NCBI RefSeq assembly: GCF_035594765.1 | Contig: NC_085845.1 | Coordinates: 145,530,897 to 145,594,896 of the forward strand | Origin: Anolis carolinensis | Taxonomy: Eukaryota | Reading direction: 5' to 3' | DNA length: 64,000 nucleotides | Part shown: positions 2,706 to 61,706 of the stretch, one piece after another | Numbering within the stretch: position 1 is the stretch's first letter | Layout of the letters: each line of letters starts with the position of its first letter | Program-made: the position numbers and the translations under genes | Notes under the pieces: model-generated | The model's input: the letters and a program-made list of their open reading frames with translations, nothing else | What the model was told of the DNA's origin: nothing | The model's database searches: none

Positions 2706-2746
2706 CCTGGTGTTTTACCCACATCTGTGGCAGGCATCCTCAGAGG
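2706..2746 (-). ncRNA. Degenerate minimal hammerhead ribozyme in pLTR
   Basis: Revcomp cctCTGAGGAtgcctgccacagatgtgggtAAAAcaccagg; G12 and the UH site are mutated. Confidence 0.6.
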
Positions 2747-2784
2747 TGTGCGGTATGTTGGAAACTAAGCAAGGGAGGTTTATA

Positions 2785-3458: not shown

Positions 3459-3499
3459 CCTCTGAGGATGCCTGCCACAGATGTGGGTGAAATGTCAGG
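3459..3499 (+). ncRNA. Minimal type I hammerhead ribozyme (core intact, helix III palindrome CG>TG)
   Basis: cct-CTGAGGA-t-gcctgc-cacagat-gtgggt-GAAA-tg-TC-agg. Confidence 0.75.
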
Positions 3500-5636: not shown

Positions 5637-5772
5637 CAATGATTCTCAACCTATGACTCTACAGTGTGTTTTGGCCCACAACTCCCAGAAATCCCAGCCA
5701 GTTTGCCAGCTGTTAGAATTTCTGGGAGTTGAAGGCCAAAACATCTGGGGACCCACAGGTTGAGAAACACTG
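5637..5772. mobile_element. hAT (Charlie-like) MITE
   Basis: Same family as 2421-2555; perfect 8-bp TSD gtgtagat at 5629-5636 and 5773-5780. Confidence 0.88.
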
Positions 5773-5947
5773 GTGTAGATCCAGCCACAGTCATTCAGTT
5801 TTACTAGCTGGAAGTTGAACCAACTTTTTCTAGGAGATATGGACACAAACATAAATTGTAATAATGAAATGTATGGGGACACAACTTGTCTCATGAAAAC
5901 CCTTCATTTATTTTTTAAAATATGCAGTTTATTGCTTATTTCACATA

Positions 5948-6304: not shown

Positions 6305-8461
6305 ATAGATCCAGAGGTTCATGTGACACACCTACACACTTCAGCTGATACACTAATATGTCATGACACACAGTTTGGAAAGCTCTGCACTGCATTTTCC
6401 CAGTCTGTAGTGACTTCTTAACACTATGCACATTGCAGACACCACAGTGAGATCTCCATAATTGGGAAACTCACTTGGGTGTAAGGAGGTGGTCCACATC
6501 TCCAATTCTTCACATTATTTTTAACCACACAGTCACTCTATTCCACATGACTCCCACCCCAATCATGCATGTAAATAAACACATTTCTATTTTGTCAAGA
6601 AACAATCAGTGCTTTTGTCCCATGCATCTATGCTAACACCTATATGCTGATATCCATACATAGATATGTTAACCACACCAGTAAAATGTTAAAACCTGGA
6701 AATAAAACCACTGCTTGGTGGGAAGGATCAGGCAACCATGTGGCCCAGGTGTTGTAAATATGCTGTAGTATTAACAGGTTTATGTTCTTCTTACTTAATT
6801 GTGTTTTGTTTTATATTGTATTTTATCGTATTTGTATTATTGCTTTTAGCTGCCTTAGACAGCATTAGTAAGTGGTCTAGCATACCCTTACTTATTTTTA
6901 AAAATCCTGAAAGATTGAATAAGGTGAATTTATGGAAATTATGCAAAATATGCGAAAATTTCTGACATGATTTACCAATATAAATCTTCTATGTCTGTAA
7001 AAGCCATACTGTCTTTAAATAAAAAGGGCAGCAGCAAGTTGTAATTTAAGATTTGTATTTCTTACTGTGGAGAGTAGGATAGAGATTATTATCTCTGCAA
7101 TGCTCCATACTCCCCTGACCAAGGAACATAATTTGGGCCTCCTAGTCTGAAAGTGAGAACTAGATTACACACAGAGGCAATTTGTCTATTGCAAAGCCTA
7201 ATTTAATTCTAAAGTTTGTTGATTTTCTGTTGACCAGAGACAATTTGTTCCAGAATCTGAATGAATTCATTTACTAAACAACAAATCAGTTAGACTGTCT
7301 AAATAAAACTAGCAGAAGGGGAAGCTATAAATTATTGAAAATGTTTCCATGGAACTTAGTGGTTGGTCACATACATTGGTTGAGAACAGAATTCATTGAG
7401 GATTCTCAAACCATTATTGCCTTGCAGGAGACTTGGCTACATAATTAATATTCTAGTTTCCTCACAGCCAGACATTTAGGAAGTTCCTGGCTTTGGACAG
7501 CTCTACAGAACAATTCATCCTGGAAGATCCCATGCCATTCTGGAGGAGATGGCTGTCTTATTAAGTAGTGAATTTGCCACTTCTGACAATCCACTACCTG
7601 AAAGAGAATATATGAGAGGGCCAGCATGCACAAAAGGAGAGATGTGATTCTTCAAAGCTTTTGCTTCATAATGTAATGTAGTGGTGTTTTTATTCTTTGG
7701 AGTGTGGAAGAATCAATTCAAAGCTCTGGTTTGATTGGATGGGTGAAAGTGAAATGAAGAGCAAATACAATCCCTACACCATACCCATACTTGTAACATA
7801 GAGTAGATGAAAAAACAATTAACATTTGTATAACATATGTTTGAGAGCACCTCTGAAATTTTGTTTTTTTGACTTACTGGCTGCACCAGTCTGCAAGTCA
7901 CAACTGTGGGCAAAGTGAGGATAGGTATTTCGTTCCAGGTACCAAGATGGTTTCTCTTTTCCAGTAGCCCACAAAGTTTTCCAGGCTGTGGTGTGTAGTG
8001 GGAAGCCCATCCAATCAGAGAGTCTGAGCTTTGTAGCAAATGGAGGCTTCATTCAGATCCAGTCCTGGCCCACATAAACTGTTTTCCCTCATCAAACCAG
8101 CAGCCAGTCAGCTTCAATCACTATTCCTACCTACCATCGCTGTGTTTGTGTTTTCTACAGACAAATGTTTCATTATTGCTATCACACAGCTAATATGGAT
8201 TGTCACATATTTCAGTAGCTCTAAAGTGGTGCTAGATCCTATTTGGATGAGTACCCTTAAGGGAGCTTTGGGTGGAGGAGGCACTCTTAGTTTGTGGGCA
8301 ATGTCTCTTCTTTATTCTTAGGTAGCAGAAGAACCAAAGTGTTTTTCATCTGAATGGATTCCCATAACTGTTCAATGTGTTGTCGAAGGCTTTCATGGCT
8401 GGGATCACAGGGTTGTTGTATGTTTTCCGGGCTGTATGGCCATGTTCTAGAAGTATTCTCT

Positions 8462-8502
8462 CCTGACGTTTTGCCCACATCTATGACAGGCATCCTCAGA
8501 GG
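8462..8502 (-). ncRNA. Minimal hammerhead ribozyme, G12>A
   Basis: Revcomp cctCTGAGGAtgcctgtcatagatgtgggcAAAAcgTCagg. Confidence 0.7.
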
Positions 8503-8648
8503 GTGTGAGGTATGGTTGTGAGGTATACATCAAGAGAACCACTGACCGCATAGGCAAACTGATGAAGAAGCACAACCTACAAACTATCTACAGACCCACA
8601 AAGAAAATCAACAAATGCTAAGGTCAGCGAAGGACAAGAGGGATCCTC

Positions 8649-8881
8649 ATAGAATCATAGAATAGTAGAGTTGGAAGAGACCTCATGGGCCATCCAGTCC
8701 AACCCCCCCTCTAAGAAGCAGAAAATCGCATTCAAAGCACCCTCGACATATGGCCATCCAGCCTCTGCTTAAAAGCCTCGAAAGAAGGAGCCTCCACCAC
8801 AGCCCGGGGGAGAGAGTTCCACTGCCGAACAGCTCTCACAGTAAGGAGGTTCTTCCTGATGTTCAGGTGGAATCTCCTTTT
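8649..8881 (-). mobile_element. CR1 LINE 3' fragment inserted into the Penelope ORF
   Basis: (ATTCTATG)n tail on the minus strand; peptide RFHLNIRKNLLTVRAVRQWNSLPRAVVEAPS typical of the CR1 ORF2 C-terminus. Confidence 0.93.
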
Positions 8882-9459
8882 CTCACCTCTGCAGGAGTCT
8901 ACAGTATACCATGCAGCTGTGGACAAGTCTACATAGGGACCACCAAACACAGTGCCCAAACACAAGTCAAAGAACATGAAAGGCACTGCAGACTAACTCA
9001 ACCAGAGAAATCAGCCATAGCAGAGCACATGATGAACCAACCTGGACACAGTATATTATTTGAGAACACAGAAATGCTTGACCACTCCAGCAATTATCAT
9101 GTCAGACTATACAGAGAAGCCGTTAAAATTAACAAGCATGTGGACAACTTCAACAGAAAAGAGGAAGCAATGAAAATGAACAAAATCTGGCTACCAGTAT
9201 TAAAAAACTCAAAAATTGGAACAGTAAATAAGAAGCAACACTCTGAAAACAGAGGAGTTCCAGACATGGGAACCAAGGGCAGCTAATGACTCCAAACAAA
9301 GGATGCCCCCGGGCAGGAGATGAAGCTATTCAATGCTAATTAAGGTGATTAACTACAACATTCACACTGGCCTCCAACTGACAAAGAGTTCTTCTCTCAC
9401 ACTGGACTTTCCACAGATATATATAAACCTTCCTTGCTTAGTTTCTCCATACCTCACAA

Positions 9460-9500
9460 CCTCTGAGGATGCCTGCCATAGATGTGGGCAAAACGTCAGG
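9460..9500 (+). ncRNA. Minimal hammerhead ribozyme, G12>A
   Basis: cctCTGAGGAtgcctgccatagatgtgggcAAAAcgTCagg. Confidence 0.7.
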
Positions 9501-11141
9501 AGAGAATACTTCTAGAACATGGCCGGAAAACATACAGCAACCCCATAACTGTTATTACCCAGCAGGGTAGCACTTGAATGAATCAAATAGTGGCAGGACC
9601 CAGACCCATGCTGCTAGCCAAACCTATTCTGTGTACCTAATAAACCTGTGCTTCCACCATTTCAATAAAATATGACCGCTATTTGTCAAAAGACTGCAGG
9701 TCTGGACTGCAATAACATTTTGGAGTTTCATCAACAGTCAGAAAAAAATGCCTTATGGGCTTGATATGGCTGGCAAGTGATTACTGGTCATTTCTGGTGT
9801 AGGCTTGCCCATAACCACTTTGGTATGAATAGATGAACATGAGAGGAAGCAGTATCTCTACTACACTGTTATTAAGACTTGCCTCTTCATACCTTGACAT
9901 TGAAAATGGCTGGGAGGTTCTTCTGTCTGAAAATACAATATGTACAATGCAATCAATGTTCGCAGAAGTGAATTAGATGGACCAATGGCGATTTATGTCC
10001 CTAATCTATATAGTGTTTGGAAATGTTACTTTTTAAGACTACAACTTCCAAGACAATCCCAACCAATGTGACCACTGGCATGGTGGCTGGGAAAGTTGAG
10101 GAGTTGTAGTCCACAAAAGCAATGTTTCTAAACTCTGAAACTTTGTGCTTCACAAGCATGTCTCTATTCTCCCTAATAGAACATATTTTGGATCTAAAAC
10201 CAAGACATAAACACACTGTTACAATGTCACTCAGCTATACCAATCTGAGTTAAAATCTGTTGTTTTAAACATATTTTATAGTTTAAACACTGCAAGGAAT
10301 TCCTAACTCTCTGCATGCGTGCTTCCAAATTGCTTTGTGGAGCAGCATGGGTGCAGCTGGCTTTAACAGGCCTTTGAAGTCTTCTCCAAGACGTTTCCAT
10401 AGTCTACATTTACAGTACTGTAACTATGTGGATCACAGTTTTCTGTCACAGCATGCAGGGCAGGCTGCCATTTGAGCAAAATCTATCTGTCTTGAAAAGG
10501 AGAAAGTTGGGAACTGAAGTGAACGTGGGAAGCCCACTCTACCATCTGCAAATGAATGCACAGCATATCCACAGTTGTTCCTTTTTACAGAGATGTACTC
10601 TATGGAATTTTAATTGCCCACATTTTAATCATCTAAAGTTTCTTGATATCCAAAGTTGCTACATAATTTTCTAAGGAAGAAAATAGACTTGGAATTGTGC
10701 AAATATACTACACTGACAGTTGCTCCAAGAATTCCCTCTTCTAACTTGCCCAAAACAACTTTTCTTGTTTTTGCTTCATTTAGTTTTATTCAGTTGTCAT
10801 ACAACGTATTTATCTATAATTGAAGAACTTATAAGATTAGGTTTCTGGGGAAAATTAATTTTTTGTGTGTGTTAACTGTACCAAGAATCCCGTTGAACAA
10901 TGCAATGAACCTTCCTTTCATTTGGTGGTGGTAGCAGAACTCAGAATAATTATGTTTAGGGTCAATAGCTCCTAATATCACCCAGCTAGCAGGGACCTTG
11001 GAAATTGTAGTGATCTCTTTGAAGCTTTATGGTATCTCAGAACCAAGATGGGTATGTTGTTTCTTCTAGACAGGGCTGGACTCTCTTTGAAAATGAACAT
11101 CCATAATTTGATAGCTATTCTAGTGACCTCTTCACACATAT

Positions 11142-11251
11142 CTATGTCTATGGACAATGCTGGCTCTTCGGTTTAGAAATGGAGATGAGCACCAACCCCC
11201 AGAGTCAGACATGACTGGACTTAATGTCAGGGGAAACCTTTACCTTTACCT
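11142..11251 (+). mobile_element. Sauria SINE 3' fragment
   Basis: ggagatgagcaccaacccccagagtc...acctttacctttacc tail. Confidence 0.88.
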
Positions 11252-12249: not shown

Positions 12250-13535
12250 CAGTAGACTCTTAGTTAACCAGTACACATGGGTATTGGTAGATGCTGGATA
12301 GATGTAGGGCCCTTTCAGACAGACCCAAAATGCAGGACCTGTCTCGCTTTTACCGGAGGCGTCCAAATGATGCCTCAGTTAAAAGCAAATCAATGCAGAG
12401 AAAACTGGGTTTTCCCAGTTTAATCCACATTAATTTGACACCTCGATAGATCCAGATCTTAAGCTAAGGTCCAGATCTTTCCAGGTGCTGGGCCTCTGAG
12501 GATTGACTTCTGGGACTGCTTCACAGTCCCAGGGGCCAATTCCCACATCCATCCTAGTTCTTTGGGTTCCTAGAGCCTGAAGGAGTGGGAGGGTGACCAT
12601 CCTATCCCCTCTAGCCCCCCATTTTCCCCTCCTCCTGATGTCATTTCCCCCCTTCCCCCACCTCCTGATGTCATTTTATCTCATCAGCGATATTGTGCAG
12701 AGGGGCCAGCGCTGTTAATAGGCCCCTTACGTAAGTTTTTTTTTTTTTTTGGAGGGGAATCGAGGGCTGGATGCCATTCCGGGTTTACCTTAGGTTGACT
12801 CGGGATGGCATCTAGTAATCCTTTAGGGGAAAGCCTGGGGTTTGAGTTGGAGGTGGGGACTGAAAACTGGGCAGAAGCGAGTTATTTTAACCCACTTCCT
12901 TCCTGGTTTTAGGGAAGTGTTTAAGGGTCCTTAGTTTCTGGTTGCTTGAGAGTTACTATTAATAACAGAGCTAACCAATACCATAAAAGGTAAAAGGTAA
13001 CAGTTTCCCCTGACGTTAAGTCCAGTCGTGACCGACTCTGTGGGTTGGTGCTCATCTCCATTTCTAAGCCAAAGAGCCAGCGTTGTCCATAGACACCTCC
13101 AAGATCATGTGTCCAGCATGACTGCATGGAACGCCATTACCTTCCCGCCGGAGCAGTACCTATTGATCTACTCACATTTGCATGTTTTCAAACTGCTAGG
13201 TTGGCAGGAGCTGGGGTTAACAGTGGGCGTTCATTCCGCTCCTAGGATTTGAACCTAGGACCTTTTGGCACATAAGTTCAGCAGCTCAGCACTTTAACAC
13301 ACTGTGCCACCAGTGGCCCCAACCAATACTATACCCCATACTATACCATAAACTCTGATATTATTGTTGAAATATGGCCATTAAAAGCCAATTAAGACAA
13401 ATAAAGAATCTTAATGTAACACCGTTATTCTATATTATAAAAACAGCTTTGTGAATGAAGTATTATTTCTTCAAATGTTTGGCAGTCACTTGAGAATTCT
13501 CGTTGTTTCAGTTCCAGGTAATTGAGAGTCTACTG
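12250..13535. mobile_element. Tc1/mariner-type MITE containing a nested MITE (~12307-12930) and a Sauria SINE
   Basis: TIR cagtagactct / agagtctactg followed by TA; same family as 44331-45029. Confidence 0.7.
12986..13320 (-). mobile_element. Sauria SINE
   Basis: Full head-to-tail match; TSD aaccaatac(c/t)ata at 12973-12985 and 13321-13333. Confidence 0.93.
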
Positions 13536-15099: not shown

Positions 15100-16080
15100 T
15101 AAAATCACCTACCCAAAATGCTTGTGATTGGAAGTGTTTCAAAAAAAATTCTTGGATTTTAGAATATCTGTATTTTGATATACCGATATGAATACGAGAT
15201 ATCTTGAAGACTAAGTCTAAACACAAAATTTATTTTTGTTTAATAAACACCTTATATTCATGGCCTGAATAATAAGGTGTTTATTAAACAAAAATAAATT
15301 TTGTGTTTAGATTCCTGTGCTTATATTCATGGCCTAGGAGCCCCGGTGGCAAAGTGTGTTAACTGAGCTGCTGAACTTGCAGACTGAAAGGTCCCAAGTT
15401 CAAATCCCAAAGCAAAGTGACGGCCCGCTGTTAACTCCAGCTTCTGCCAACCTAGCAGTTTGAAAACATGCCAATGTGAGTAGATCAATAGGTACCACTC
15501 CAGCAGGAAGGTAACGGCGCTCCATGCAGTCATGCTGGCCACATGACCTTGGAGGTGTCTATGGACAATGCCGGTTCTTTGGCTTAGAAATGGAGATGAG
15601 CACCAACCCCCAGAGTCAGACATGACTGGACTTAACGTCAGGGGAAACCTTTACCTTTACCTTTATTCATGGCCTGACGGCAATTGTATGTATTAAATCA
15701 TTTTTAAAAAATAAGTTTTTATTGTAAACACCAGTAGAATAATAACAAAATCCATCACCATTTTAATATACATACCAAATTATATATTCTTAGTAACATT
15801 ACACTTGCTAATTCCACCTTTATCTCCCACTTATATCTATTGGTTTTTCACCCCCACCCCCTACCCTCTGGGAATGGTACTTTCTTTCATTCAGATATTA
15901 TTTTAATGGATCAATCGTAAATAGAGAATGATTCAATTCTTACATCATTTTGAGTCTTCAACAAAGTTTAATGAAATCATTAGAAAACCAAGGTGTCACT
16001 ATCTCAGCCACCCATGTGTGCAATTTTGGATTTTGGAGTATTTTGGATTTTGGAATTCCGTATTAGGGATGCTCAACCTG
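15100..16080. mobile_element. Old Tigger/pogo-like MITE interrupted by a Sauria SINE
   Basis: 3' TIR ggatgctcaacctg at ~16067-16080; related pieces at ~34000-34150 and ~34930-35027. Confidence 0.55.
15337..15663 (+). mobile_element. Sauria SINE
   Basis: Full length; TSD tattcatggcct on both sides. Confidence 0.93.
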
Positions 16081-17727: not shown

Positions 17728-18651
17728 CTGTATATACTCGAGTATAAGCCTAGTTTTTCAGCCCTTTTTTAAGACTGAAAAAGCCCCCCTCGGCTTATAC
17801 TCAGGTAAGGGTCCTGGTTGGCTTATATTTGGGTCAGCTTATACTCAAGAATATATGGTACATTTATTATTTTTCTCTATTATTGTTGCTACTATTACAT
17901 TTATTTTACTCTATTTTTATTATTATTAATACATTTATTATTTCACTCTGATCTTATTATTATTGTTACATTTATTATTTTACTCTATTTATTATTACAT
18001 GTATTATTTTCCTGTATTTATTATTATTATTACATGTATTATTTTACTCTATTATTATTAAAAGGATACATGGAGCCTCCGGTGGCTCAGTGTGTTAAAG
18101 TGCTGAGCTGCTGAACTTGCGAACCAAAAGGTCCCAGGTTCAAATGCGGGGAGCGGAGTGAGCGCCCGCTGTCAGCTCCAGCTTCTGCCAACCTAGCAGT
18201 TTGAAAACATGCCAATGTGAGTAGATCAATAGGTACCGCTCTGGCAGGAAGGTAATGGCGTTCCATGCAGTCATGCCAGCCACATGACCTTGGAGGTGTC
18301 TATGGACAACGCCGGCTCTTCGGCTTAGAAATGGAGATGAGCACCAAGCCCCAGAGTCGGACACGATTGGACTTAACGTCAGGAGAAATCTTTACTTTTA
18401 CCTTGAAGAAGATGAGAATAACGATTTAATCAGAGTTGGACAGTCTTATCTTAAATTTGAGCTTTATGTAAATATTCAAAAACATTTAACCTACTGATGC
18501 CTCTATTAATGTAATTTTATTGGTATCTATTTTTATTTCTGAAATTTACCACTCTTGGCTTATACTTGAGTCAATGTTTTCCCAGTTTTTTTGTGGTAAA
18601 ATTAGGTGCCTCAGCTTATATTCAAGTCGGCTTATACTCGAGTATATATGG
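17728..18651. mobile_element. Tc2/pogo-like MITE
   Basis: TIR tatatactcgagtataagcc / ggcttatactcgagtatata; internal ggcttatactc repeats. Confidence 0.85.
18072..18404 (+). mobile_element. Sauria SINE nested in the MITE
   Basis: Full head-to-tail match to the other copies. Confidence 0.93.
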
Positions 18652-19214
18652 GGAAGTTACTCATAACAATGGTAAACATGACTGAAGCCGAGATCTGTAT
18701 AATGCTGGCAGACCATAAAATTCTACCAGTCGACTAACTCAGAACTCTGGTTGCTGGAGAGACAGGATGGAGGTAGCCATCCTGGCTTTCATAGCACAAC
18801 CATGGAGCCAATAGGTAACTATTTCTATGACAGCTACAGAGCTGTCCCCAAACACTGTCTGCCAGCTATTGTACTGCTGATCTAACATCTTCTAAAGGGA
18901 GATACCTGATAACTCTTCACACAATGTTGTTAAAAGTAGATGTAACAGAGCAGCCCCCAATTATGGTACCAGGAAGATTTCAGCTGCAGTATTCATCCAT
19001 CCCTAAGTTTCTTCTGTTTCTTATTTGAGATTGTTAACAAGCCAATAAAGCCCAGTCAGGCTGTTATTTTATGTAATGACAAAAGAACAAATTATCTTAC
19101 TCTCAGTTATAAAGAAAGAGCTGATCTAGACAGATGGTTCCAAACTTGGGGATGTTATTGCTCTTCAGATCCTAGAATTCTTGACCATGGATTAAGGCAT
19201 GGCAGCTTCTAGGA

Positions 19215-19348
19215 CAGTGGTTCTCAACCTGTGGGTCTCCAGATGTTTTGGTTTTCAACTCCCAGAAATCATAACAGCTGGTAAGCTGGCCAGGATTTCT
19301 GGGAGTTGTAGGCCAAAATACCTGGGTCCCACAGATTGAGAACCACGG
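19215..19348. mobile_element. hAT (Charlie-like) MITE
   Basis: Perfect 8-bp TSD ttctagga at 19207-19214 and 19349-19356. Confidence 0.9.
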
Positions 19349-23931: not shown

Positions 23932-25757
23932 ATGTTAGTTGTGATCTATCTATCTATCTCAGGTTACAACTAACTGAGAAAACTCTTTTTATGCTCCAGA
24001 CATGGAACTATAATTTCGAAGTAAATATACAGTTTTAAAGAAATGTCCCTGCTAGTATACATAAGCCATATATATATATATAGTGGATCTGGCCACATAC
24101 TGTTATGCATTTCAAGGTGATGAATTTTAGATTCCATATTTGTTTGTTCCTCTTCTATTGACAATTTATTTTTAGATTAGTTTAGCCATTAAAGCAGCCT
24201 TCCTTACTTCACCGTTGCATTTCTTAATTTTAAAACTTTCTCCTGAAAATGGGAAGTTGCTTCTTTTCCTTTAAAAATAAACAACAAAAAAATTATGACC
24301 CCCCCCCCAAGCTCTTTGTTTAAAACGCATACCATGTGACCTCATTTCTCGCAATAGAGGAAGCCAAATAAATGTGAAAAATTGAATGGATCCAACCTGT
24401 CAATATTTTAAACCCATCCTTTTAAAAAACGTATCTGCTGATTTTAACTAATTTACATACAGCCAGAGGGTAAATTGAAGAGAAAAGTCACATTCTTCCC
24501 AAGTTGAGCTCACAACATCAGTCTTGCCAAATAAATGAAGCCAAAGACCTAAACTTCCATGATACATTCCAAATTTAAGACACAATTAGGATGCATGGAG
24601 GCCTTGGGTTAGTTTGTCACCCTGACAAGTAACAATGGAAACTGTCAATTATCTGCTGCCAAATAGTCATGAAAATACACTTTTCCACTGTAACCCATTT
24701 TAAAAACACATTTCAGCTCTCTTCTAGTGGAGTAACTCTTTCTGTTACTGCTCTGGTAATAGTCTAGTTATTTCAGTATGCAGTTATACAGACAAAGGTG
24801 GAAGGGAAAACAAACGGATTATGGAGATGTGGATTTATGTAGGAGTTAGGATTAATTTTCTATGTATTTATAGGATAATTTCAATATACTTATATATTCC
24901 AGTCATCCTTCCATATTTATGGTTTGATTATTGTAGTTTTGTGTATTTCACAGATTTGGTTAAAAATTTATCTCTAAGAATGTCTAGTTCTTCCAGTGTG
25001 ACTCTATGGTCAACTTCCTTTAGTCAAGCTGGAAGATCTAGAGGTTTCTAGGGAGAACACTTCTCCAGGAATTTCTACAACCCAAAGGATAATTCTGTAG
25101 TCAGCTTCCAACAGAAGTCAACAATATAGTCTAGCTTGAAGACCCAATAATTCCTAAATATGTGCTCTCTCATGTAATGCTTTTTAGCAATTTCTTTATT
25201 TGAGGGTTTTTATGGGGATCCTGTGTATATGACAAAGTATGCAGCAAGTTCATTGCAACCCACTGCTACATCATCTTAATGCTTCTAGAAGCGGGTTGCT
25301 GGAATTGCTGCCCAGTTAGTCAAGGGTAAGGGTGTATGTATACCATCCACAAGATCTGGTGAATCTTCTGATTCAGCAGTTCATAAAACAGACTTGTTTA
25401 ACTTCGATCAGGTAAGATAACTCAGGGACCAAATTCAAAGTGGGATTCAGAAATCTAAAAATTCAGTCGTCAAATCAGCTGTAAATCGTGAAATGGCAAT
25501 AATTTTTTGACTGTTTGGCAGTGTGGGATGAAATTTGTGGGAGCAGTTAAATCACTAAGAAGGGATGAAGCCTGCCAAATGGTGTTTAATTGCAATCAGC
25601 ATCTCGCAGTATTCTCTATGAACAACAATCTGGAGAGTTGCATGATTCACTCCTTGTGCTTTGCCCAGAATGATATTCTGTTTACTATAATAAACTAAAA
25701 GTAATTTTATATCCACAGTAGTAAAAATTGTTGTTTTTGTGAAATCATCCACTAAGG

Positions 25758-25894
25758 CAGTGGTTCTCTCAACCCATGGGTCCCCAGGTGTTTTGACCTA
25801 CAACTCCCAGAAATCCCAGCCAGTTTATCACTGTTAGGATTTCTGGGAATTGAAAGCCAAAACCTCTGGAGAACCCACAGGTTGAGAACTACTG
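25758..25894. mobile_element. hAT (Charlie-like) MITE
   Basis: TSD ca(c/t)taagg at 25750-25757 and 25895-25902. Confidence 0.88.
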
Positions 25895-26828: not shown

Positions 26829-29268
26829 TAGATGTGGCCTAAACATTTGTTTGCCTATCAAATCTTTTGTAATTTCTAGCTACCATTAAAGAGAGCAAAC
26901 CCTGACATCTCCAGTGAAAAGATACTGGGAAGAGACTTTGGAAAGCTGCATATGTGCTGACACTGATTTGACTTACTTCACTTACAATGCTTTACATATG
27001 CCTGCCTGTACCAAACTTTTTTTTTCCTTTTTAACTCTCATGACAATAGTAGTGATTTTTGTAATGCAAAATATTTACTGCGAAAAATATAGTGTTTCCT
27101 TGACTGGACACAGGAAGGATCCATGCTAATCTGGGGTCATGCATGGAAAGTGGAGGTCTCAGGGAAAGAAAGGCTTATTTAGGTCAATATTTACTGATTT
27201 GCTGAATATTTTGACACTCAATTTCTCTAAGAAAACATTGAAAATGAGACACTTTCAGTGTTGCTGATCATCTTTGCTTAAACTCAGTTGCTAGGATATT
27301 ATTAATGCAAAAGTGAAAATAATATTTCATTGCATTTATTTGTTTCAGCTGATACTTTCGCCTATCAGAAGGATTCTGACAGTTATAACTTTTTCTCATT
27401 CCTATTAACTTCATTTGCATAAAGACAGGTTAATGGCAGCCCACTTTACAAGCCCCTTGTCTTTATTGTTATCCCCATTTTACAGCTAGCGTTTTGTCTA
27501 TGGCCACCCAGTGAGTCCTGTGACTCTACAGACATTTGATCCTAGTTTCCCCCAAAGTCTCCCAAGCCACGCACCAGCACATTTTGTGGATTACAGTGCT
27601 AATCCTTTAGGGGAGCTACAGAATGTGTACAGTGAGACAAGTCTGACAGTTGTTTAGGTTTAAGGAATTATTTTGTATAATGTCAAAATAGCATCTAGTC
27701 TCAATAACAAAGGCAGCTTGGAGTGATATCATATGATCTATTAATTCATTGAAATAATGCTAACCAGAGGTTGGTCGATGTAAACAATGTTTTACTCACA
27801 TGCATTCCTTAGAATTAGTTTATTATTCATTCAACTTCATAAAAACAAAAGTTTTGCCATGAAGAACTTCAAATTGTTTGGGGGTGGAGGGAGATTTGAG
27901 TCATTTAATTTCACTAGGAACAAGAGCAGACCTCTGGGAGATGGATTTTTCACCACAACTTGGCAATTATGTTTTCAATAGATTATTGAATTTCTCAATT
28001 GATATATAGTCAAATGATATCAGTGACTGCACAGGATGTTATTCCAAAGTTTAGAGGGACTATCCAAAATGCATAACCTTTTTTCAAGCAGGGATCAGTA
28101 CCATGGAAAGTGCCTTCAATATCTGGGATAATTCCAAAAGCAGATTGGTCACACACGTATGATGTGGAAGCCACCAGCTGCCAATAGCAAATGAATTGTC
28201 CAAAGGAAACTGTTCAGCTCTTTCCAAAGGTTAGAACCAACATATGATAAACCTTAAATCCAACTATTCTGGTTGGCACACTTTATGGATCATAGATTGG
28301 TACTTCTGTTAACATTACACTATTTTTCAATTGTTTCAGAATCATAGAGTATGAAGACACTGAAGGGCCATCTAGTCTACTCCCTTATTAAACACAAATC
28401 AAGCACTCCCAAGAGAAGCAAACTGCTGTGAAAAAGAAAAGGAGTATCAAACAAACATGAGAAGAATACAATTCTACATCTCTGTAAAATTCCATGATAT
28501 AGAAGCAGATTTGATCCCCAGTTTGTCTCATAACACAAAAAAATAGCCAGGTTTCAGTCCAAATACATTTTTGATAGTAGACCTTGGACATAACATGTGC
28601 CAAATAATGTAATTTGAACTTTTATTTTCTGTAAGAAAGGCATATTGCTCTCATATCGAGAATTATTATTTTGGGTGTAGAATAGCATTTTCACATTAGA
28701 GGGTTTTTTTGGGGTGTGTGTGTATATTTTAAGTCATTTCAAAGCATTTTGAATTGATTTTTAAAAGATACTTTGCTATTTTTTATATCAGTCTTAACTT
28801 TTTATACCAAAAAGTTTCAAAAAATTGAAATAACATAATGCATCATGTTATATATTACTAGCCAGAGTCTTTGTGTTTTCAGTAACCTGGGGAGGGAAGT
28901 GCTTTGCAGAATAACAACTACTTTTTAAAAATTAGCCTTCTAAGCTCTGGTAAAGAGGGATGTGCACCTAAGACAAGATGCAGTTCTAATCCTAATTAGA
29001 TTGTTTGGAAAATGAGCTCATTCAGTTTGGAGAGCTTTGAGCATGACTGTTTTACCTCAACAATGAATCAGACCTTCACTTTGGAAAATCTGATGCTTTG
29101 TATGTCTATTTACTCACTTTTTGGTGTTACTAGATACAATTTGCAGTAGATTGTTGTGAACCTAACAATCTATATGTGGGCAATTGGTCTGAAAGTGGTA
29201 TGCCTTGTAATGATGCTCCTTCCAGGGCATGGGGAAATTGTTGACTTAATTGGAAATTCCATTTATTA

Positions 29269-29473
29269 GGCAAAGGTTTTTCCCTGGGATTAAGTTTAAT
29301 TGTGTCCGACTCTGGGGGTTGGTGCTCATCTCCATTTCTAAGCCAAAGATCCAGCATTGTCCATAGACACCTCCAAGGTCATGTGCATGAAGCGCCATTA
29401 CCTCCCCACCAGAGCGGTACCTATTAATCTATTCACACTTACATGTTTTCAAACTGCTAGGTTGGGAGAAGCT
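29269..29473 (-). mobile_element. Sauria SINE, 5'-truncated and diverged
   Basis: ggttggtgctcatctccatttctaagcc core. Confidence 0.85.
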
Positions 29474-29548
29474 GTCCAAGGCCAACAATAAGAAAGCAAG
29501 ATTACACCCAGAAAATATTCTTTTAAACAACAAACAAGTCCTAGGGAT

Positions 29549-30265: not shown

Positions 30266-31399
30266 GGGATACATTCTGGACTGATTGCAAAGAACTCAGG
30301 TGAGGATTACCACGTGCGTATTAGACATTGCTCACTTTATTGGTGTTTGCCTAACTCTGAAGTTCTATAAAATACTTATAAACTTCATGTGTCTCAATCA
30401 GTGATGTGTGTAGATTGTACTGAAAGCAGTGCTGGGGCATGGAAGATCCTTTGGCCAAAGTTACTGCTTGTTGTCTGTTTGCCTTCCTGCTCAGTTTCAG
30501 GACTCATTCCAGTTCTGTGTTTCACTTAGGAGGGCTGATAGTTCCGCCCAACCCAACAGCTGAACCTTGTTTTAGTTCTACTTTAGGATTATTTCCAATG
30601 CCTTTTTAACTGTTGTAATGTGCTATAAGTCTTCAGCTGAGACAAAGATGGGATAGAAATAAATATAAGAATTTAATCAAGTTGCGCACATTCTAGTAGA
30701 GTGCACAATACAAGTTTTGAAAGCATCACTATTTTTGCTCCCTAGTCAATGTTATAAACTTTTTATTGAAAAAAATCTGTTTACTACAGATAAATCCTTA
30801 CACACACACACACAACTCTTATTTTGACACTGCTCATCTGAAATTTATAATTACTTTCCTCAGAACTTTCTACAGATAATAAATGCTCATGGTAAACTGG
30901 TTGAACTTTCTTTATTTTTCCACAGACATAACTGTCTGGCACAGCCTTTCAGTTTAACACATCACATTAATATTTCAATAGAAAAATTAACAGTGTCAGC
31001 TAGGAGATGGATCTAAACCAAATGTTCTCTAAACATTCCTCAAAACTGAGAAGCAAGAGACAAGATAATTTCAACTTGAAAATTATGGGTGTCAACCTGT
31101 GAATAACCTTTGGCTTTTATAGTTTTTTTATTATTTTGTGCACAGATATAAATCAAGCTGTAACAGGCTTCAGTCGAGCATACTGAATTTGCTGGCTCAG
31201 CTGAGATCAAACCTATATACTAGGCTTGCTCAAATAATTCGATTTCCCCGTTACCCGTTATTAATTCGTTACTTTCATTACTTTTGAAGCAATATACGGC
31301 CTTGATTGTCCACACGTCTGGATATCGCGGTTTCGAACCGCGAGAGGCTGTTTTTTGTTATGTCGTCGTTTTTTTCGTTAGGAAAAAAAGCTTTTGCAA

Positions 31400-31810
31400 A
31401 TCACCCAAACTCCCACCATTCCTAACAGCCTCAGGCCCTTTCCTTTTGCCCCTCAGCAAAAGGGGCGTCATGGGCTCAGCCAATGGGAGGGGGCGAGGGG
31501 GAAGGAGGCCGAGGAGGAAGAGGAAGACGGAGGGGGGAAATGGCCGCCGCCGCCGCCTCAGCTCAGGCCTGGTGTCTCTCTGTGAGCTGGGAAGGCGGCG
31601 GATGGAGCCGGGAATGGAGAGACCGAGAGAGACAGAGACACACAGAGATGGAGGATGGCGCGGGGCCCGGCGGTGAGGAGGAAGAGGCCCGGGATGTGAG
31701 GGGGTGTGGGCCAGGCCCGTCCTCGGCCGCTCCCGGGGAGGGAGGGAGGGAGGACTACGACTCCCAGGGGCCCAGATTCGCACCCTCCCTCCCCCCAATA
31801 CAGGTCTCCA
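31400..31810 (+). promoter_or_regulatory. CpG-island, promoter/first-exon-like segment inside the hAT element
   Basis: CGTCA 31466-31470, agCCAATg 31480-31484, purine-rich leader, YY1-like aaATGGCCGCC 31538-31548, (GCC)n, candidate donors GTGAG at 31582 and 31673. Confidence 0.6.
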
Positions 31811-31850: not shown

Positions 31851-32240
31851 TGTGTTGTTGAAAGCTTTCATGGCCGGGATCACACTGTTGTGGTATGTAT
31901 TCCGGGCTCTATGGCCATGTGCCAGAAGCATTCTCTCCTGACATTTCACCCACATCTGTTGCAGACATACTCAGAGGTTTTGACGTCTGTGCGAAGCTAG
32001 GCAAGTGGGGTTTATATATCTGTGGAAGGTCCAGGGTGGGAGAAAGAACTCTTGTCTGTGGGAGGCAAGTGTGAATGTTGCAATTGGTCACCTTGATTAG
32101 CATTGAATAGCCTTGCAGCTTCAAAGCCTGGCTGCTTCCTACCTGGGGGAATCCTTTGTTGGGAGGTATTAGCTGGCCCTGATTGTTTCCTGTCTGGAAT
32201 TCCCATTTTCTGGGTGTTGTTCTTTTACTGTCCTGATTTT
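31851..32240 (-). mobile_element. Penelope-like pLTR fragment with degenerate hammerhead (31937-31977, G8>T)
   Basis: Homologous to the other pLTR copies; includes the 3' tail. Confidence 0.88.
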
Positions 32241-32437: not shown

Positions 32438-32538
32438 GACCTTGCTCCCAGGAAGGTGCCTTCGCTGTGGCTCCCAACTTATCTATCTACTTTTCCACAT
32501 ATTCTCCACATTGTGTGTATGTGTATGTATATATACAT

Positions 32539-32849
32539 GAGCCCCGATGGCGAAGTGTGTTAAAGCACTGAGCTGCTGAACTTGCAGACCGAAAGGTCCC
32601 AGGTTCAAATCCCGGGAGCAGAGTGAGTGCCCGCTGTTAGCTCCAGCTTCTGCCAACCTAGCAGCTTGAAAACATGCCAATGTGAGTAGATCAATAGGTA
32701 CCGCTCTGGCGGGAAGGTAATGGCACTCCATGTAGTCATGCCGGCCACATGACCTTGGAGGTGTCTATGGACAACACTGGCTCTTGGGCTTAGAAATGGA
32801 GATGAGCACCAACCCCCAGAGTCAGACATGACTGAACTTAACGTCAAGG
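32539..32849 (+). mobile_element. Sauria SINE, runs into the gap
   Basis: Match to the other copies. Confidence 0.92.
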
Positions 32850-33004
32850 NNNNNNNNNNNNNNNNNNNNNNNNNNNNNNNNNNNNNNNNNNNNNNNNNNN
32901 NNNNNNNNNNNNNNNNNNNNNNNNNNNNNNNNNNNNNNNNNNNNNNNNNNNNNNNNNNNNNNNNNNNNNNNNNNNNNNNNNNNNNNNNNNNNNNNNNNNN
33001 NNNN
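32850..33004. other. Assembly gap (N run)
   Basis: Ns in the sequence. Confidence 1.
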
Positions 33005-35698: not shown

Positions 35699-35729
35699 TT
35701 CCTTTTAATCAAAGATGAAAGTGGGATTT

Positions 35730-36058
35730 TTGTGGTGGCGCAGTGTGTTAAAGCGCTGAGCTGCTGAACTTGCAGACCGAAAGGTCACAGGTTTGAATCT
35801 GGGGAGCGGAGTGAGCACCCGCTATTAGCTCCAGCTTCTGCCAACCTAGCAGTTTGAAAACATGCAAATGTGAGTAGATCAATAGGTACCACTCCAGTGG
35901 GAAGGTAACGGCATTCCATGCAGTCATGCCAGCCACATGACCTTGGAGGTGTCTACGGACAATGCCGGCTCTTCAGCTTAGAAATGGAGATGAGCACCAA
36001 CCCCCCAGAGTCGGACACGACTGGACTTAACGTCAGGGGAAACCTTTAACTTTACCTT
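35730..36058 (+). mobile_element. Sauria SINE
   Basis: Match to the other copies, with tail. Confidence 0.92.
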
Positions 36059-53890: not shown

Positions 53891-55220
53891 TCAACTGCCC
53901 AGATGTGGCTCCAGGATTTAAAATCTAAACTTTTTTTTAAAAAAACTATCATAGTCACTGAGACTTCCCCCATAGGTTCAACAGCTTTAAAATTCAGACA
54001 GAAATTCAAAGTGTAGTCACCAACCCAGCAATATTGGACCCATCAATTCCCACTGCTTGTAGTGGTTCAGTTAGTGCTGAACAATTGGATCAAGACACTA
54101 CCAGAACTTCCATTGTGTCATTGTTCTGAAACACTCAGAAACTGAAATGACAGCTGACTCCTAGACACAGGCTGGGAGGCTATATTACATGACATCTACA
54201 CTGCCATACAATACAGTTTCAAACTGTATTATATGGCAGTATAGGTGGGGTTTCATCTGCTGAGACATAGCCATTGCCTTTGGGTATATCTGCTATGGAG
54301 CCCAGTGGGGGACATTTGCTGGGAAATTTGGTCCTTCCAAACTGGAGCTGGCTTTGCACATCATAGGCACAACTGCATACATGATTTCTGTTTTTGACTC
54401 ATCAGACAGAAATTTTTGTCCTACTGTGACAATTGATGTATATGATTGGTTAGTTGGTTACAGACAGGAGAATGGGCAGAGGTTTCAAATGATTGACTTC
54501 AAAGATTTTACAAATGTGTTCTCAATTTATTTACTGAATTTGTATTAAATTTGTTTCATTAAGATTTTTTTAACATAGGAAAAACAAAGGCAAACTAGGA
54601 TCCCAAGACAAATATTTGGAGATGGAAATCATTTTCATCTTTTGGAAGGCTCAGTGAACTGAATGTGTAACTGCGATTTGCTGAGCAAGAGAGTTTTTAA
54701 AATGTTCTACCAGCACCAGGGAGACTTTTCTTTCTAATTGTGCTGGCTATTCCAATTCAGAACTCAGAAAAGCACTGCATTCATTGGATTTAATTATATG
54801 CTGTTTCTAAAAATAAATGTCCTGCAACACCATTTTTACTTCATTTCTTTTTTATTGTTATGGTATCTTTTAAAAAAATAAACATGGCTGGGATACGCTT
54901 TACTCTCTAAACACACACACACCACTTTGTTTTCATACAAATCAGGAATTAATGAAAGTTATTAGAAGCTCAGTAAACAAGGTCTTGTTTATGACTGTAT
55001 TCACCTTGGGGAAAATATTTTCCCTCTTTTAATCTGAAAATAAGCATGCTGCGTTAATTTGAAGCAGTGGTAGAAGTTGGAAAGTTATGCTTATGCTGAA
55101 ACCATCCAAAATTGAACTGTGGTATGATGATGCCTTGGATCTGAGAACACTATGCTTTTTTTCTGATTGTGGAAGGCTTCAGTATGTCTTCCACAGACAG
55201 TAAAAAGGAAGAATCTCAAA

Positions 55221-55436
55221 AGGGTTACAAAACCCGCGCGTTTGCGGATGACTTGGTTTGTTTAATAGAAGACCCTTTAAAACAATTTGATTTATGGTGG
55301 AAGACAATTGAAAATTTCGGGGAGGTGGCTGGACTGAAGATCAATAAAGAAAAAACTAAAATATTAACCAAGAATATGGCTCAGAAGAATATGGAGAAAT
55401 TACAAGAAGTCATGGGAATAGAAATAGTCAAAAGGA
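55221..55436 (+). pseudogene. Internal fragment of L1-clade reverse transcriptase
   Basis: YKTRAFADDLVCLIEDP...FGEVAGLKINKEKTKIL (FADD motif C plus GLKINxxKT). Confidence 0.85.
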
Positions 55437-56292
55437 TTCCTTTAGAGTACAGTCAACATAACTATTGAACACAAGGGAAAGCCACTATCTTTGATGGATG
55501 CTTCCAAGCACTAGCATAGATAATCCTAGTGTCATGCCTATGGATTGAATGCTTTATCCTTAAATTCAAGATATAAAATATCTTGCTGCAATGTTGATTA
55601 GGGTGTTCTCACTTATTTGCCAAACAATGGTCCTCTAACATTTCACAATTATAGCACTGTGAAGTTCTAACCCATGGAATGATGTTCAGTTAGGTGTGTG
55701 ACACACAAGTTCTTTAAGAATGATAAATTATAAAATGCAAATTCCATGACAGAACCATGACAGTTAAAGTGGAACTCTTGTTACAAAATAATATTGAATT
55801 TGAAAATCTTGGAAGCATTTGATTTCATCCAGATACATTTTTCAAAGTTACTATTCTGCAAGACTTTGGAATTATGGTTTCTCTTGCTCCCACCATTTTC
55901 AAAGGTATGTTTGATGAGTAGCACAATAAAAGACCTTATCAATGGCTGCTCCCAGGCTGTGGAATTCCTTGTAATGGAAGATGTTAAGCACCATTCCCCT
56001 TTTGTTCAATGTGTTCAAATGGTTTTAAATTTGTTTTTAATCCAGTGTTAATTTTTAATATACTTGTTGAATTGATTTTTTAATTTTTCTCTAATTTTAT
56101 AAAATATTGGTATTGAATTTCATTCCAGTTTGTGTTATACTCTGCCTTGGGTTCTATAGTGGAAAAATGGCAGGATATAAAAATACATACTTACTAAGGA
56201 CTTCTAAAAATGTAACTGGGTAATGAAATGGTTCATTAGTGGACGCTTGTCTGCTATGTACAACTGAGACATATGGATTGAGGTGAAAACAC

Positions 56293-56395
56293 ATGTTCCA
56301 GAACATGTATGGCCATGTTCTGGTACATGGCCATACAACCCGGATACCTCACAGCAACCCAGAGATTCCAGCCATGAAAGTCTTCGACAACACAT
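56293..56395 (+). mobile_element. Very short Penelope 3' end with a micro-inversion, no hammerhead
   Basis: tgtatggccatgttc followed by tggtacatggccataca...ttcgacaacacat. Confidence 0.75.
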
Positions 56396-57090
56396 TAAGT
56401 CAAAAATATTTTTTGGGTTTTTTTTTAAAAGGAGAAAATGCAGTGTTCCCAATGCATTGAGAGACATTGTTTGGAGTCTTATAGGTTAGGCTTAAAGGTA
56501 GATCCAATGAATCAGTTGTGGAACTGGGACTAGTCTAGTCTGCATGAATACAAGACCCTTATCACATTGAGGTCACCTATCTGGGCAATAGCGGGGTGAT
56601 TCACCATGGATTGTGATGAATCTGGCATGGGGAATCTTTTGCCCTGCACCCCGCATCGCCTGCATTGCCCTCGCTGCCTGGCTTCTCCCCGTTGTTGTTT
56701 ATGCAACACAGGAAGCCTCCCATGTTGCCGGCACTGCCTCCTGCAACACTTGGATCTCACTTCAGGCATAGCGCCCCTTCAGAAGTAGATTGACATCATG
56801 TGATGGGATCCAGTGGGCTCTGTGCCTGAAGAGAGGTCCAAGTGTCATAAGATGGACAATTTTGCCCATCTGATGTAGTCCTTAGGCCATTTCTTAGTAT
56901 AGCTTACAAACTGCATCCATGTTTTTGGTTCATTGATTAAATTTTAGTGTCCATTTGTCTCTAATGGGTGTTCAAAAATTAGGATTAGATGCCCATTTGA
57001 ACACACAACTGTTACTTTTAAATTCTTTTGACAATAACAGACATACTTTGTGTGGAACCCTATATTTTAAGGATTTCCTGCCTAAGAATA

Positions 57091-57761
57091 CAGGCAGTCC
57101 CCGAGTTACAAATATCCAATTTACAAATTAATCATAGTTAAGAATGAGGGGCCCCTAGTGGCACAGAGTGTTAAAGCGCTGAGCTGCTGAACTTGCAGAC
57201 CAAAAGGTCCTGGGTTCAAATCCTGAATTCAGAGTGAGTTCCTGCTGTAAGCTCCAGCTCCTGCCAACCTAGCAGTTCGAAAACATGCGAATGTGAGTAG
57301 ATTGATAGGTACCGCTCCGGCGGGAAGGTAACGGCGTTCCATGCAGTCATGCCGGCCACATGACCTTGGAGGTGTCTACGGACAACGCCGGCTCTTCGGC
57401 CTAGAAATGGAGATGAGCACCAACCCCCAGAGTCAGACACGACTGGACTTAACGTCAGGGGAAACCTTTACCTTTACCTTAAGAATGAGGGTGAGACAAC
57501 AGGTGAGAGAAATTTACCCCTAGGAAGGGAAATACACTCCTGAAAGAGTTATCATGGGGAAAAGGTGTCTCAACTGTGATATCATGGAGTTATCATGGGG
57601 AAAAGATGTTTCAAGCTTTATCACCACTTCTTGTTTCCACAACAAGCCAAATTTTTCAAAATCCAACTAACACAGGGACAGAAAATGAGGTGAAATCTTC
57701 TGAACTGGCACACAGACAGCAAAACAAACACCATGGAGTTGTAAACCTATGCTATCCAATG

Positions 57762-59544: not shown

Positions 59545-59690
59545 TTGGGTTGCTGTGGGTTTTCTGGGCTGTATGGCCATGTTCCATGTTCCATGCTCCC
59601 AATGTTTCTCCCACATCTATAGCAAGGATCCTCAGGGGTTGTGAGGTCTGTTGGAAACTAGACAAGTGGGGTTTATATATATGTGGAATG
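59545..59690 (-). mobile_element. Older-subfamily Penelope pLTR fragment with decayed hammerhead
   Basis: Resembles the 48.6 kb copy (gtgaggtctgttggaaactag) more than the adjacent young element. Confidence 0.8.
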
Positions 59691-59693
59691 TTT

Positions 59694-61034
59694 GTTGAAA
59701 AGATCAGCAACCTCAATCTAAGCACCAAGGACATCCTGATCAGCTTTGATGTGGTGTCCCTTTTTACCAAAGTCCCAGTAGCTGACACCCTCACACTAAT
59801 CAAACAAAACTTCCCAGAAGACATCACAGCCCTGTTTCACCATTGCCTCACCACTAGCTACTTTCAGTGGGACACTGGATTCTATGAACAGAAGGATGGA
59901 GTGGCCATGGGGAGCCCTCTCAGCCCAGTAGTAGCAAATTTCTATATGGAATACTTTGAAAAACAGGCCCTAGAAACAGCACCAAAAAAGCCAACTGTTT
60001 GGTTCAGATACGTAGATGACACCTTCACGATTTGGAGCCATGGAGAGGAAGAACTCAGCAAGTTCCTGGACCATCTTAACAGCATCCACCCAAACATCCA
60101 ATTCACCATGGAAAAAGAAAAGGAAGGAAAACTGCCATTTCTAGATGTTCTGGTCATCCGCAAACCCAATCAACAATTGGGCCACACAGTTTACAGAAAA
60201 CCTACACACACAGATAGATACCTTCATAAAAACTCCAACCATCACCCAAGTCAAAAAAGGAGCACAATCAAAGCCCTGACAGACCGTGCACAAAGAATCT
60301 GCGAACCTCACCTCCTCCAAGGTGAACTTAACCACCTAAACTGGGCTCTACAGGCCAATGGATACTCCACCACAGACATCAGAAGAGCTGCAAGGCCAAG
60401 AACAAGTCATGAGAGTCAAGACAAAGATCCACCCAGAGGAAAGGTGTTCTTACCATACATCAAGGGAACTACTGACCGCATAGGGAAGCTGATGAAGAAG
60501 CACAACCTACAAACTATCTACAGACCCACGAAGAAAATCCAACAAATGCTACGGTCAGCGAAGGACAAGAGGGATCCTCTCTCTTCTGCAGGAGTCTACC
60601 GGATACCATGCAGCTGTGGACAAGTCTACATAGGGACCACCAAACGCAGCGCCCAAACAAGAGTCAAAGAACATGAAAGGCACTGCAGACTAATTCAACC
60701 AGAGAAATCAGCCATAGCAGAGCATTTGATGAACCAGCCTGGACACAGGATACTATTTGAGAACACAAAAATGCTGGACCATTCTAACAACTATCATGTC
60801 AGACTACACAGAGAAGCCATTGAAATCCACAAGCATGTGGACAACTTCAACAGAAAGGAAGAAACCATGAAAATGAACAAAATCTGGCTACCAGTATTAA
60901 AAAACTCAAGAATCAAAACAGTAAATAAAAAGCAATACTCTGAAAACAGAGGATTTCCAGACATGAATCAACCTAGGACAGTTAACGACTCTAAACAAAG
61001 GATGCCCCAGAGGCAGGAAGAAGACAGCAGATAA
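59694..61034 (+). CDS. Penelope-like RT + GIY-YIG endonuclease (N-terminally truncated)
   Basis: RT motifs SFDVVSLFTKVP, QKDGVAMGSPLSP, FRYVDDTF; GIY-YIG motif GVYRIPCSCGQVYIGTTKR..R..EH; no internal stops. Confidence 0.93.
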   Translation, partial: VEKISNLNLSTKDILISFDVVSLFTKVPVADTLTLIKQNFPEDITALFHHCLTTSYFQWDTGFYEQKDGVAMGSPLSPVVANFYMEYFEKQALETAPKKPTVWFRYVDDTFTIWSHGEEELSKFLDHLNSIHPNIQFTMEKEKEGKLPFLDVLVIRKPNQQLGHTVYRKPTHTDRYLHKNSNHHPSQKRSTIKALTDRAQRICEPHLLQGELNHLNWALQANGYSTTDIRRAARPRTSHESQDKDPPRGKVFLPYIKGTTDRIGKLMKKHNLQTIYRPTKKIQQMLRSAKDKRDPLSSAGVYRIPCSCGQVYIGTTKRSAQTRVKEHERHCRLIQPEKSAIAEHLMNQPGHRILFENTKMLDHSNNYHVRLHREAIEIHKHVDNFNRKEETMKMNKIWLPVLKNSRIKTVNKKQYSENRGFPDMNQPRTVNDSKQRMPQRQEEDSR

Positions 61035-61276
61035 GCTTTTCAATGCTAATTAAAGTGATTAACTACACATTCACACTGACCTCTCTCACCCTAGACTTTC
61101 CACAGATATATATTTACCTCTTTGCTTAGTTTTCTCCATACCTCACAACCTCTGAGGATGCCTGCCATAGATGTGGGCGAAACGTCAGGAGAGAATGCTT
61201 CTGGAACATGGCCACACAGCCCGAAAGACACACAACAACCCTGTGATCCTGGCCATGAAAGCCTTCGACAACACAT
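59696..61276 (+). mobile_element. Young 5'-truncated Penelope-like (Poseidon-type) retroelement
   Basis: Uninterrupted RT/GIY-YIG frame, pLTR with hammerhead and tail; candidate TSD tgtttgt at 59689-59695 and 61277-61283. Confidence 0.95.
61149..61189 (+). ncRNA. Minimal type I hammerhead ribozyme, perfect copy
   Basis: Helix I CCT/AGG; CTGAGGA 61152-61158; helix II GCCTGC/GTGGGC (61160-61165 / 61173-61178); GAAA 61179-61182; palindromic ACGT helix III; predicted cleavage after C61186. Confidence 0.88.
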
Positions 61277-61706
61277 TGTTTGTATATTTGCTTACACTCA
61301 GTTTTACTCCAACAATGATTTCAGGCACATCTGACAACAGCAAGCTTTAACATATCCATTGCATTCCAGAAATGGTGTGAGGACCTTTGTTCAATCTATT
61401 GGGATCAATTAATCAGCTGAACTTATTAATAAGATAGAGTAGGAAAAGGCTGTTGTTGCTACGACACTGACCAAAACCACACCCAACTAGTGTTCCTCTC
61501 TCTATCAGTCTCTACCTTTCTACTAAGACTGTAGAATTCTGCTCCCCACCCATTTTTCTTTCAGTCCCCAAATTTCTAGAATACTAGTGAGTGAGACATT
61601 GAAAACCATTCTCATCTAGAACTCTTACTGATTTTTTTGTCTTTGCATTTCCTTTGTGATTTCCCTATCACTTTTCTATGGATTCCAAAACTATATTTCA
61701 AAAAGC

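Follow-up and report, generated by a model that had tools for sequence, protein, structure and literature searches.

The closest described relative of the locus analyzed here is the PAc (Poseidon_Ac) element of Anolis carolinensis, whose hammerhead ribozyme has been assayed biochemically (Frangieh et al., 2024; PMC11167929). According to the accessible part of that paper, the PAc open reading frame (ORF) begins at stem II and the cut lies 26 nt 3' of the start codon; cleavage is abolished by C3G or G8C and partially rescued in the double mutant, does not occur without the PAc protein and is still supported by endonuclease mutants. The assay used a 361-nt RNA with a single hammerhead, at 500 nM RNA, 500 nM protein and 5 mM Mg. 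Reverse transcription (RT) starts in the downstream tail and can dispense with cleavage, catalytic ribozyme mutants insert normally in vitro, and the same part of the paper describes RNA-seq reads with ends at the cut site as absent. The protein is a dimer in AlphaFold2 predictions, and the hammerhead motif is conserved across Anolis species (PMC11167929).

Back-to-back pairs and an optional tail are known features of PLEs, and the Naiad PLEs spread without hammerheads (accessible part of PMC8557442). Tandem retrozymes derived from PLEs are known in kind from the accessible parts of PMC7229834 and bioRxiv 10.64898/2026.07.22.740005, the latter reporting them in four of five reptiles.

The ribozyme at 61149-61189 and its element

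The window is the whole 64,000-nt stretch of A. carolinensis DNA that we analyzed, and its positions 61149-61189 (+) hold an intact minimal type I hammerhead of 41 nt in which CUGANGA, GAAA and UH follow in order (61152-61158, 61179-61182 and 61185-61186). Helix I has 3 bp (CCU/AGG); the CUGAGGA core is followed by one extra U; helix II pairs 61160-61165 with 61173-61178 in 6 bp, four Watson-Crick and two G-U; and GAAA runs into ACGU (61182-61185), with C17 at 61186. Both a helix I that closes the motif and a helix III reduced to the ACGU palindrome are present in the sequence. With published minimal type I hammerheads the motif shares its type, a long helix II, the extra nucleotide between 9 and 10.1 (here after A9), the G10.1-C11.1 pair and a palindromic 15-16 region, whereas its helix I has 3 bp against their 4-5. 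The window family also resembles them in consisting mostly of single truncated copies and close opposite-strand pairs. Anolis is absent from the main text and supplement file 2 of the paper describing these ribozymes.

Compared by eye, 61149-61189 is letter for letter the PAc ribozyme of the template printed in the accessible part of PMC11167929. Over 61035-61278, three substitutions and a single 3-nt gap set the window apart from that template; all four lie outside 61116-61230, and three of them are common variants among contigs of public runs; these contigs speak only to the variants of the family and to a family end near 61275, with no bearing on expression. Anatomy and identity together bear out the proposal of an earlier note on this DNA that a minimal type I hammerhead lies here in a Penelope pLTR. 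Its placing of cleavage after C61186 also agrees with the published cut, when the 26 nt given in the accessible text are counted from the end of the ATG at 61158-61160 (PMC11167929).

In this ATG (+), the start codon of the PAc ORF, the first letter is core A9, the second the extra U and the third G10.1; only a 120-nt tail follows it here. An open frame at 59691-61034 (+) represents the 3' half of a 5'-truncated PAc ORF (about residues 400-846), with an RVT_1 domain (E 8.9e-13), part of the reverse transcriptase including YVDD and a GIY-YIG-type endonuclease region. The pLTR (UTR) and tail occupy 61035-61278 (+). They reach about 120 nt beyond the ATG and end where the accessible part of PMC11167929 puts the distal start region of RT (+111 to +118). 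Because 59691-61278 is 98.9% identical, without gaps, to one full-length copy (6 amino-acid differences) and about the first 399 codons are lost, the element is a young, 5'-truncated, non-autonomous insertion with the 61149 hammerhead at its end. It has in common with PAc, as far as the published account is accessible, the 41 nt, the ATG inside the motif, the cut site and the tail end, and differs in being 5'-truncated with no ORF 3' of its ATG; otherwise it is of the same kind. The heptamer TGTTTGT lies approximately at each end of the young element (59688-59694 and 61278-61284), beside a TATATA run of an older pLTR stub; it is possibly a target duplication, and the young copy may therefore have inserted into the older one.

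The exact 41-mer occurs 12,566 times in the 1.85-Gb genome (reversed control, 0). Ribozyme and element are already known, published and assayed, and the copy here is ordinary, being one of more than 12,000 identical ones; since the same ribozyme of the same element has been assayed, its finding adds nothing new. We are highly confident that 61149-61189 is the PAc hammerhead, reported to cut only with the element's own protein, that it ends a 5'-truncated insertion, and that the nine other copies in the window are decayed stubs.

A motif running past the tail into the ORF has 195 genome matches. Five full-length loci drawn from these matches (L102-L106) each have one or more 846-aa ORFs that begin with the ribozyme ATG, with YVDD at 506 and GVY and YIG motifs at 700-714. 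The latter we take, following the naming in PMC11167929, to mark a GIY-YIG endonuclease; Pfam gave no GIY-YIG match on the isolated segment. Full-length tandems have a period of 2,664-2,666 nt and an inverted partner, and every hammerhead in the five loci matches the 41-mer exactly, ACGU included. The earlier note stated that no ORF track shows this RNA module, but the motif does not lie outside coding sequence, since the 846-aa ORF starts within it. No further in-frame Met occurs before residue 137, which is preceded by out-of-frame AUGs at +38, +51 and +98.

Dispersed copies in the window and the genome

Scanning both strands of the window with 61149-61189, without gaps and allowing at most 14 mismatches, gave exactly ten copies, and blastn and nhmmer returned the identical set. 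The ten-member hammerhead family of the earlier note was thus found in place, the copy it had located approximately being 59598-59638, but CUGANGA, GAAA and UH are all kept in only five of the ten. Apart from 61149-61189 (+, 0 mismatches), core and ACGU are both intact only in 45356-45396 (+, 1 mismatch), which has a G10.1-U11.1 wobble. The core is kept with ACGU changed to AUGU in 3459-3499 (+, 3 mismatches), with ACGU changed to ACAU in 49282-49322 (+, 3 mismatches) and with ACGU lost in 59598-59638 (-, 8 mismatches). Three copies carry G12A, namely 2706-2746 (-, 5 mismatches, core broken), 8462-8502 (-, 2 mismatches) and 9460-9500 (+, 1 mismatch); G8 is lost in 31937-31977 (-, 6 mismatches) and the core is broken in 48642-48682 (-, 4 mismatches). 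The nine copies other than 61149 are more or less decayed stubs of its family.

Eight of the ten copies form four back-to-back pairs, and ten independent insertions are therefore rejected. Three pairs, each with arms on both strands, lie at 2654-3587 (hammerheads 2706 and 3459, arms 90.1% alike), 8369-9524 (8462 and 9460, arms 96.9% alike, ORF fragments between them) and 48570-49374 (48642 and 49282, arms 92.4% alike). In the fourth, an older-subfamily pLTR stub at 59547-59691 (-), holding hammerhead 59598-59638, abuts the young copy; with arms only 82% alike, it is doubtful that 59598 and 61149 arose in a single insertion event. The remaining hammerheads belong to a solo pLTR stub at 45333-45480 (+; hammerhead 45356-45396) and an older-subfamily pLTR at 31851-32240 (-; hammerhead 31937-31977). 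An eleventh family stub at 56318-56396 (+) is tail only (+42 to about +120) and lacks the hammerhead.

Several other features share the window. A CpG-island-like region at 31250-31800 (59% G+C, CpG observed/expected 0.74), in which alanine codons come after an ATG near 31540, likely represents the opening exon of a forward-strand host gene, with the 31937 pLTR copy just 3' of it in antisense. A dispersed repeat of about 330 nt occurs in both orientations at 416-751, 11145-11251, 12987-13321, 15331-15662, 18072-18403, 29268-29474, 32537-32868, 35725-36056 and 57148-57479, and presumably resembles a squamate SINE. Palindromic short repeats with sub-threshold mir-5408 matches (2415-2555, 5638-5787, 19200-19326, 25754-25871 and 41612-41729) we take to be likely remnants of MITE-type DNA transposons and not microRNA genes. 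Another reverse transcriptase fragment at 55145-55465 (RVT_1 E 4.2e-07), unrelated to the PAc copy by blastn, is likely a LINE remnant. A local tandem repeat of 100-106-nt units at 46275-47244 is interrupted by a 266-nt repeat that recurs at 2844-3109, inside the 2706/3459 pair.

Copies of the family were also compared over 864 kb, made up of the window plus four stretches of 200 kb, of which two had been selected for their short arrays. This sample contained 102 ungapped copies within 8 mismatches, of which 22 were perfect, 62 had an intact core and 41 kept both core and ACGU; 92 of the 249 differences fell on 4 CpG positions out of 41. Two-sided changes numbered none in helix II and one in helix I, and covariation was likewise absent from a smaller sample of 66 copies (four of 70 matches having been excluded for more than 8 mismatches). 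The covariation in helix II across genomic copies, whose absence the earlier note named as a refutation, thus did not appear; since the published assay nonetheless shows cleavage, its lack is an invalid refutation test on dead copies, and missing compensatory changes are uninformative, because the copies are dead and the source elements few. Genome-wide, ACAU (8,113) and AUGU (7,574) stand at a ratio of 1.07, near the 1:1 of neutral decay; the 66-copy local sample held 13 and 5, respectively. Decay of the copies is largely neutral and falls largely at CpG sites after insertion. Among otherwise perfect copies genome-wide, C11.1U (3,511) exceeds G12A (1,882) 1.87-fold, but sequence context and the difference between a silent and a missense change confound this excess as a sign of selection. 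In an older subfamily (823 matches) the fourth helix II pair is mostly an A-A mismatch, with a compensating A-U in 1 of 100 among the matches listed. C3 to G8 and the 5' strand of helix I, upstream of the ATG, are kept across subfamilies.

The ends of the copies bear on their template. In 162 family pieces, 3' ends cluster at +80 to +90 (58 pieces) and at +113 to +125 (56 pieces); 137 pieces run across the cut site, +26 to +32 contains no end, and two pieces start at +27 to +33. Cleaved RNA as the template of the dispersed copies is rejected on these counts: the copies derive from uncut RNA reverse transcribed from the tail, which fits the conclusion of PMC11167929 in its accessible part. Neighbouring copies among 70 matches formed 19 back-to-back and 2 facing pairs, and the family has the tandem or inverted pLTRs, the optional tail of 30-40 nt and the two 3'-end clusters of a PLE. 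In sampled stretches L031-L070 the near-palindrome CCTCTGAGG, located at the 5' half of the core, often lies no more than about 30 nt from the point where a back-to-back pair turns, with spacings of 32-81 nt. The descriptor used below detected no second, unrelated hammerhead family in 464 kb, and under a looser hammerhead pattern all but about one of the 100 matches listed (of 897) belonged to the PAc family.

Tandem arrays elsewhere in the genome

Short tandem repeats of pLTR-derived type I hammerheads, with periods of 80, 159, 173 and 220, are present elsewhere in the genome and give the family a likeness to non-LTR retrozymes as described in the accessible literature. The window's ten copies differ from these in being dispersed ends of an autonomous family and not tandem; at least two consecutive short units with complete hammerheads, as in a retrozyme, occur in the arrays at other loci and not among the ten. 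The 80-nt junction motif has 180 genome matches, and loci were examined from 100 listed. The 80-nt arrays occur at ten or more loci; the ten examined, on six contigs, comprise 161 units, 124 of them core-intact and 117 with both core and ACGU, although units within one array are not independent. They lie at G000:C6:5216694-5220562 (L129) and C15:16236242-16237150 (L130) and on C4 (L131, L135), C7 (L132), C5 (L133), C6 (L134), C15 (L136, L137) and C1 (L099). The largest has up to 50 units; the arrays share an AT-rich junction, are usually framed by a normal PAc tail and in many cases lie near contig ends. Other short pLTR tandems, each with its own junction, have periods of 220, 173 and 159 (G000:C1:1063176-1063876, C1:2664321-2664880 and C1:7002451-7003288, respectively).

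In two of four loci where units were compared with the arm, most units differ in a subfamily letter from the last unit and the inverted arm. The 80-nt arrays may represent a mobile unit resembling a retrozyme, or else minisatellites that grew repeatedly because one junction is favoured. Our literature search found no paper on 80-nt anole arrays; the supplements of bioRxiv 10.64898/2026.07.22.740005, which sampled five reptiles and is accessible in part, may cover them.

Folding of the RNA and the role of cleavage

Folding predictions for the forward strand give a candidate inhibitory hairpin at 61141-61157, in which CCUCA (61141-61145) pairs with UGAGG (61153-61157) and which would hide U4-G8. 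Its predicted pair probability is 0.97-0.98 with at least 24 nt of upstream flank. A competing helix, 61129-61137/61188-61196, is often predicted and takes the 3' strand of helix I; in the monomer fold helix I has a probability of about 0, CCU/AGG being outside the predicted stable fold. Helix II pairs with a probability of 0.7-1.0 in the window copy and 0.51-0.86 in 33 copies with native upstream sequence, and has a median of 0.03 when pooled over long mixed flanks and fold-back copies. The active arrangement is predicted to cost about 10-11 kcal/mol more than the hairpin fold, a gap that is overstated because minimum-energy folding ignores tertiary contacts of the core. The hairpin exceeds a probability of 0.5 in 26 of 33 copies, which were picked for having both arms; core G5 is also paired at P>0.9 with 15 of 200 upstream flanks after shuffling. 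The oldest subfamily mostly lacks the hairpin, the equivalent pairing scoring 0.0 in 11 of the 12 copies examined, although truncation or decay affects this region in several of them. It is plausible on these models that the hairpin explains the protein dependence of cleavage. Our literature search found no paper on the hairpin; Fig. S2C of PMC11167929, a source accessible in part, may already depict it.

A match arising by chance or as an artefact has a negligible probability. Rfam models gave no hammerhead match in the window or in 61100-61240 (E up to 5 or 10), leaving the motif without a covariance-model match there, and the folding z-score of the hammerhead (-1.55) and the lack of covariation point the same way. 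Against this, a hammerhead descriptor combining sequence and pairing matched the window 4 times, compared with a mean of 0.017 and a maximum of 1 in 60 dinucleotide shuffles, and a chance match is refuted outright by the published mutants, which prove that the identical sequence is active (accessible part of PMC11167929). According to the earlier note, efficient cleavage probably needs two copies paired through ACGU, as in a tandem-pLTR transcript; the same account does not support a need for the tandem: the 361-nt RNA with its single hammerhead was cut in vitro once PAc protein was added and stayed uncut without it, so a cis tandem is dispensable there. A requirement for two hammerheads paired through ACGU, with the protein as a predicted dimer holding two RNAs or tandem sites together, nevertheless has in our judgement not quite an even chance. 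A monomeric helix III is impossible with a 2-nt loop, and schistosome minimal hammerheads cut weakly as dimers or trimers and not as monomers (PMC4209133). The ACGU self-duplex is weakly stable (-1.7 kcal/mol, versus +2.6 and +3.4 for two decayed forms) and the palindrome is exact in every hammerhead of the five full-length loci, yet the genome counts of ACAU and AUGU give no sign of selection for it. The predicted dimer and the 500 nM RNA of the assay (PMC11167929, accessible part) would suit such pairing; tandem hammerheads, however, lie 2,664 nt apart, and for a natural two-unit stretch a non-dimer fold is predicted to be 28 kcal/mol more stable.

We consider it unlikely that the ribozyme has no present role in vivo and persists as a passenger, retained for the start codon and first ten ORF residues that its letters also encode. 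Such a passenger would be consistent with the normal insertion of catalytic mutants in vitro and the absence of RNA ends at the site in the accessible account (PMC11167929), with the descent of genomic copies from uncut RNA and with the spread of Naiad PLEs without hammerheads (PMC8557442, accessible part). The helix II mismatch of the older subfamily, with its single compensating A-U per 100 among the matches listed, also agrees with it, and the 1.87-fold excess of C11.1U over G12A fits silent versus missense change as well. Upstream of the ATG, however, C3 to G8 and the 5' strand of helix I are kept across subfamilies; the motif is conserved across Anolis species, and the C3-G8 rescue shows real catalysis (PMC11167929, accessible part).

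For the PAc hammerhead cutting with its own protein, our preferred reading, the following course can be proposed. The missing helix III and the predicted hairpin that covers the core likely keep the free RNA inactive; binding of the PAc protein likely changes its fold, possibly by joining two RNAs through ACGU. A cut between the start codon and the remaining ORF would end translation of that RNA, and would silence it because the AUG is split from the ORF, the next in-frame Met being residue 137 with three out-of-frame AUGs before it. In tandem transcripts, cleavage would release units of 2,664 nt. A wider scheme, which we hold to be improbable as a whole, would join these steps: a hairpin keeps the ribozyme off, a PAc dimer opens the RNAs and pairs them via ACGU, the cut removes the start codon as feedback and yields circularisable units, and the 80-nt arrays are the footprint of a PAc-copied 80-nt circular mini-retrozyme.

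Dimeric action of minimal PLE hammerheads is directly testable, because purified active PAc protein exists, and the genome offers natural controls (G12A, ACAU and AUGU copies) as well as natural 80-nt multimers. If the wider scheme were true, a ribozyme assisted by a protein would be linked both to a retroelement that limits its own expression and to the way retrozymes arise.
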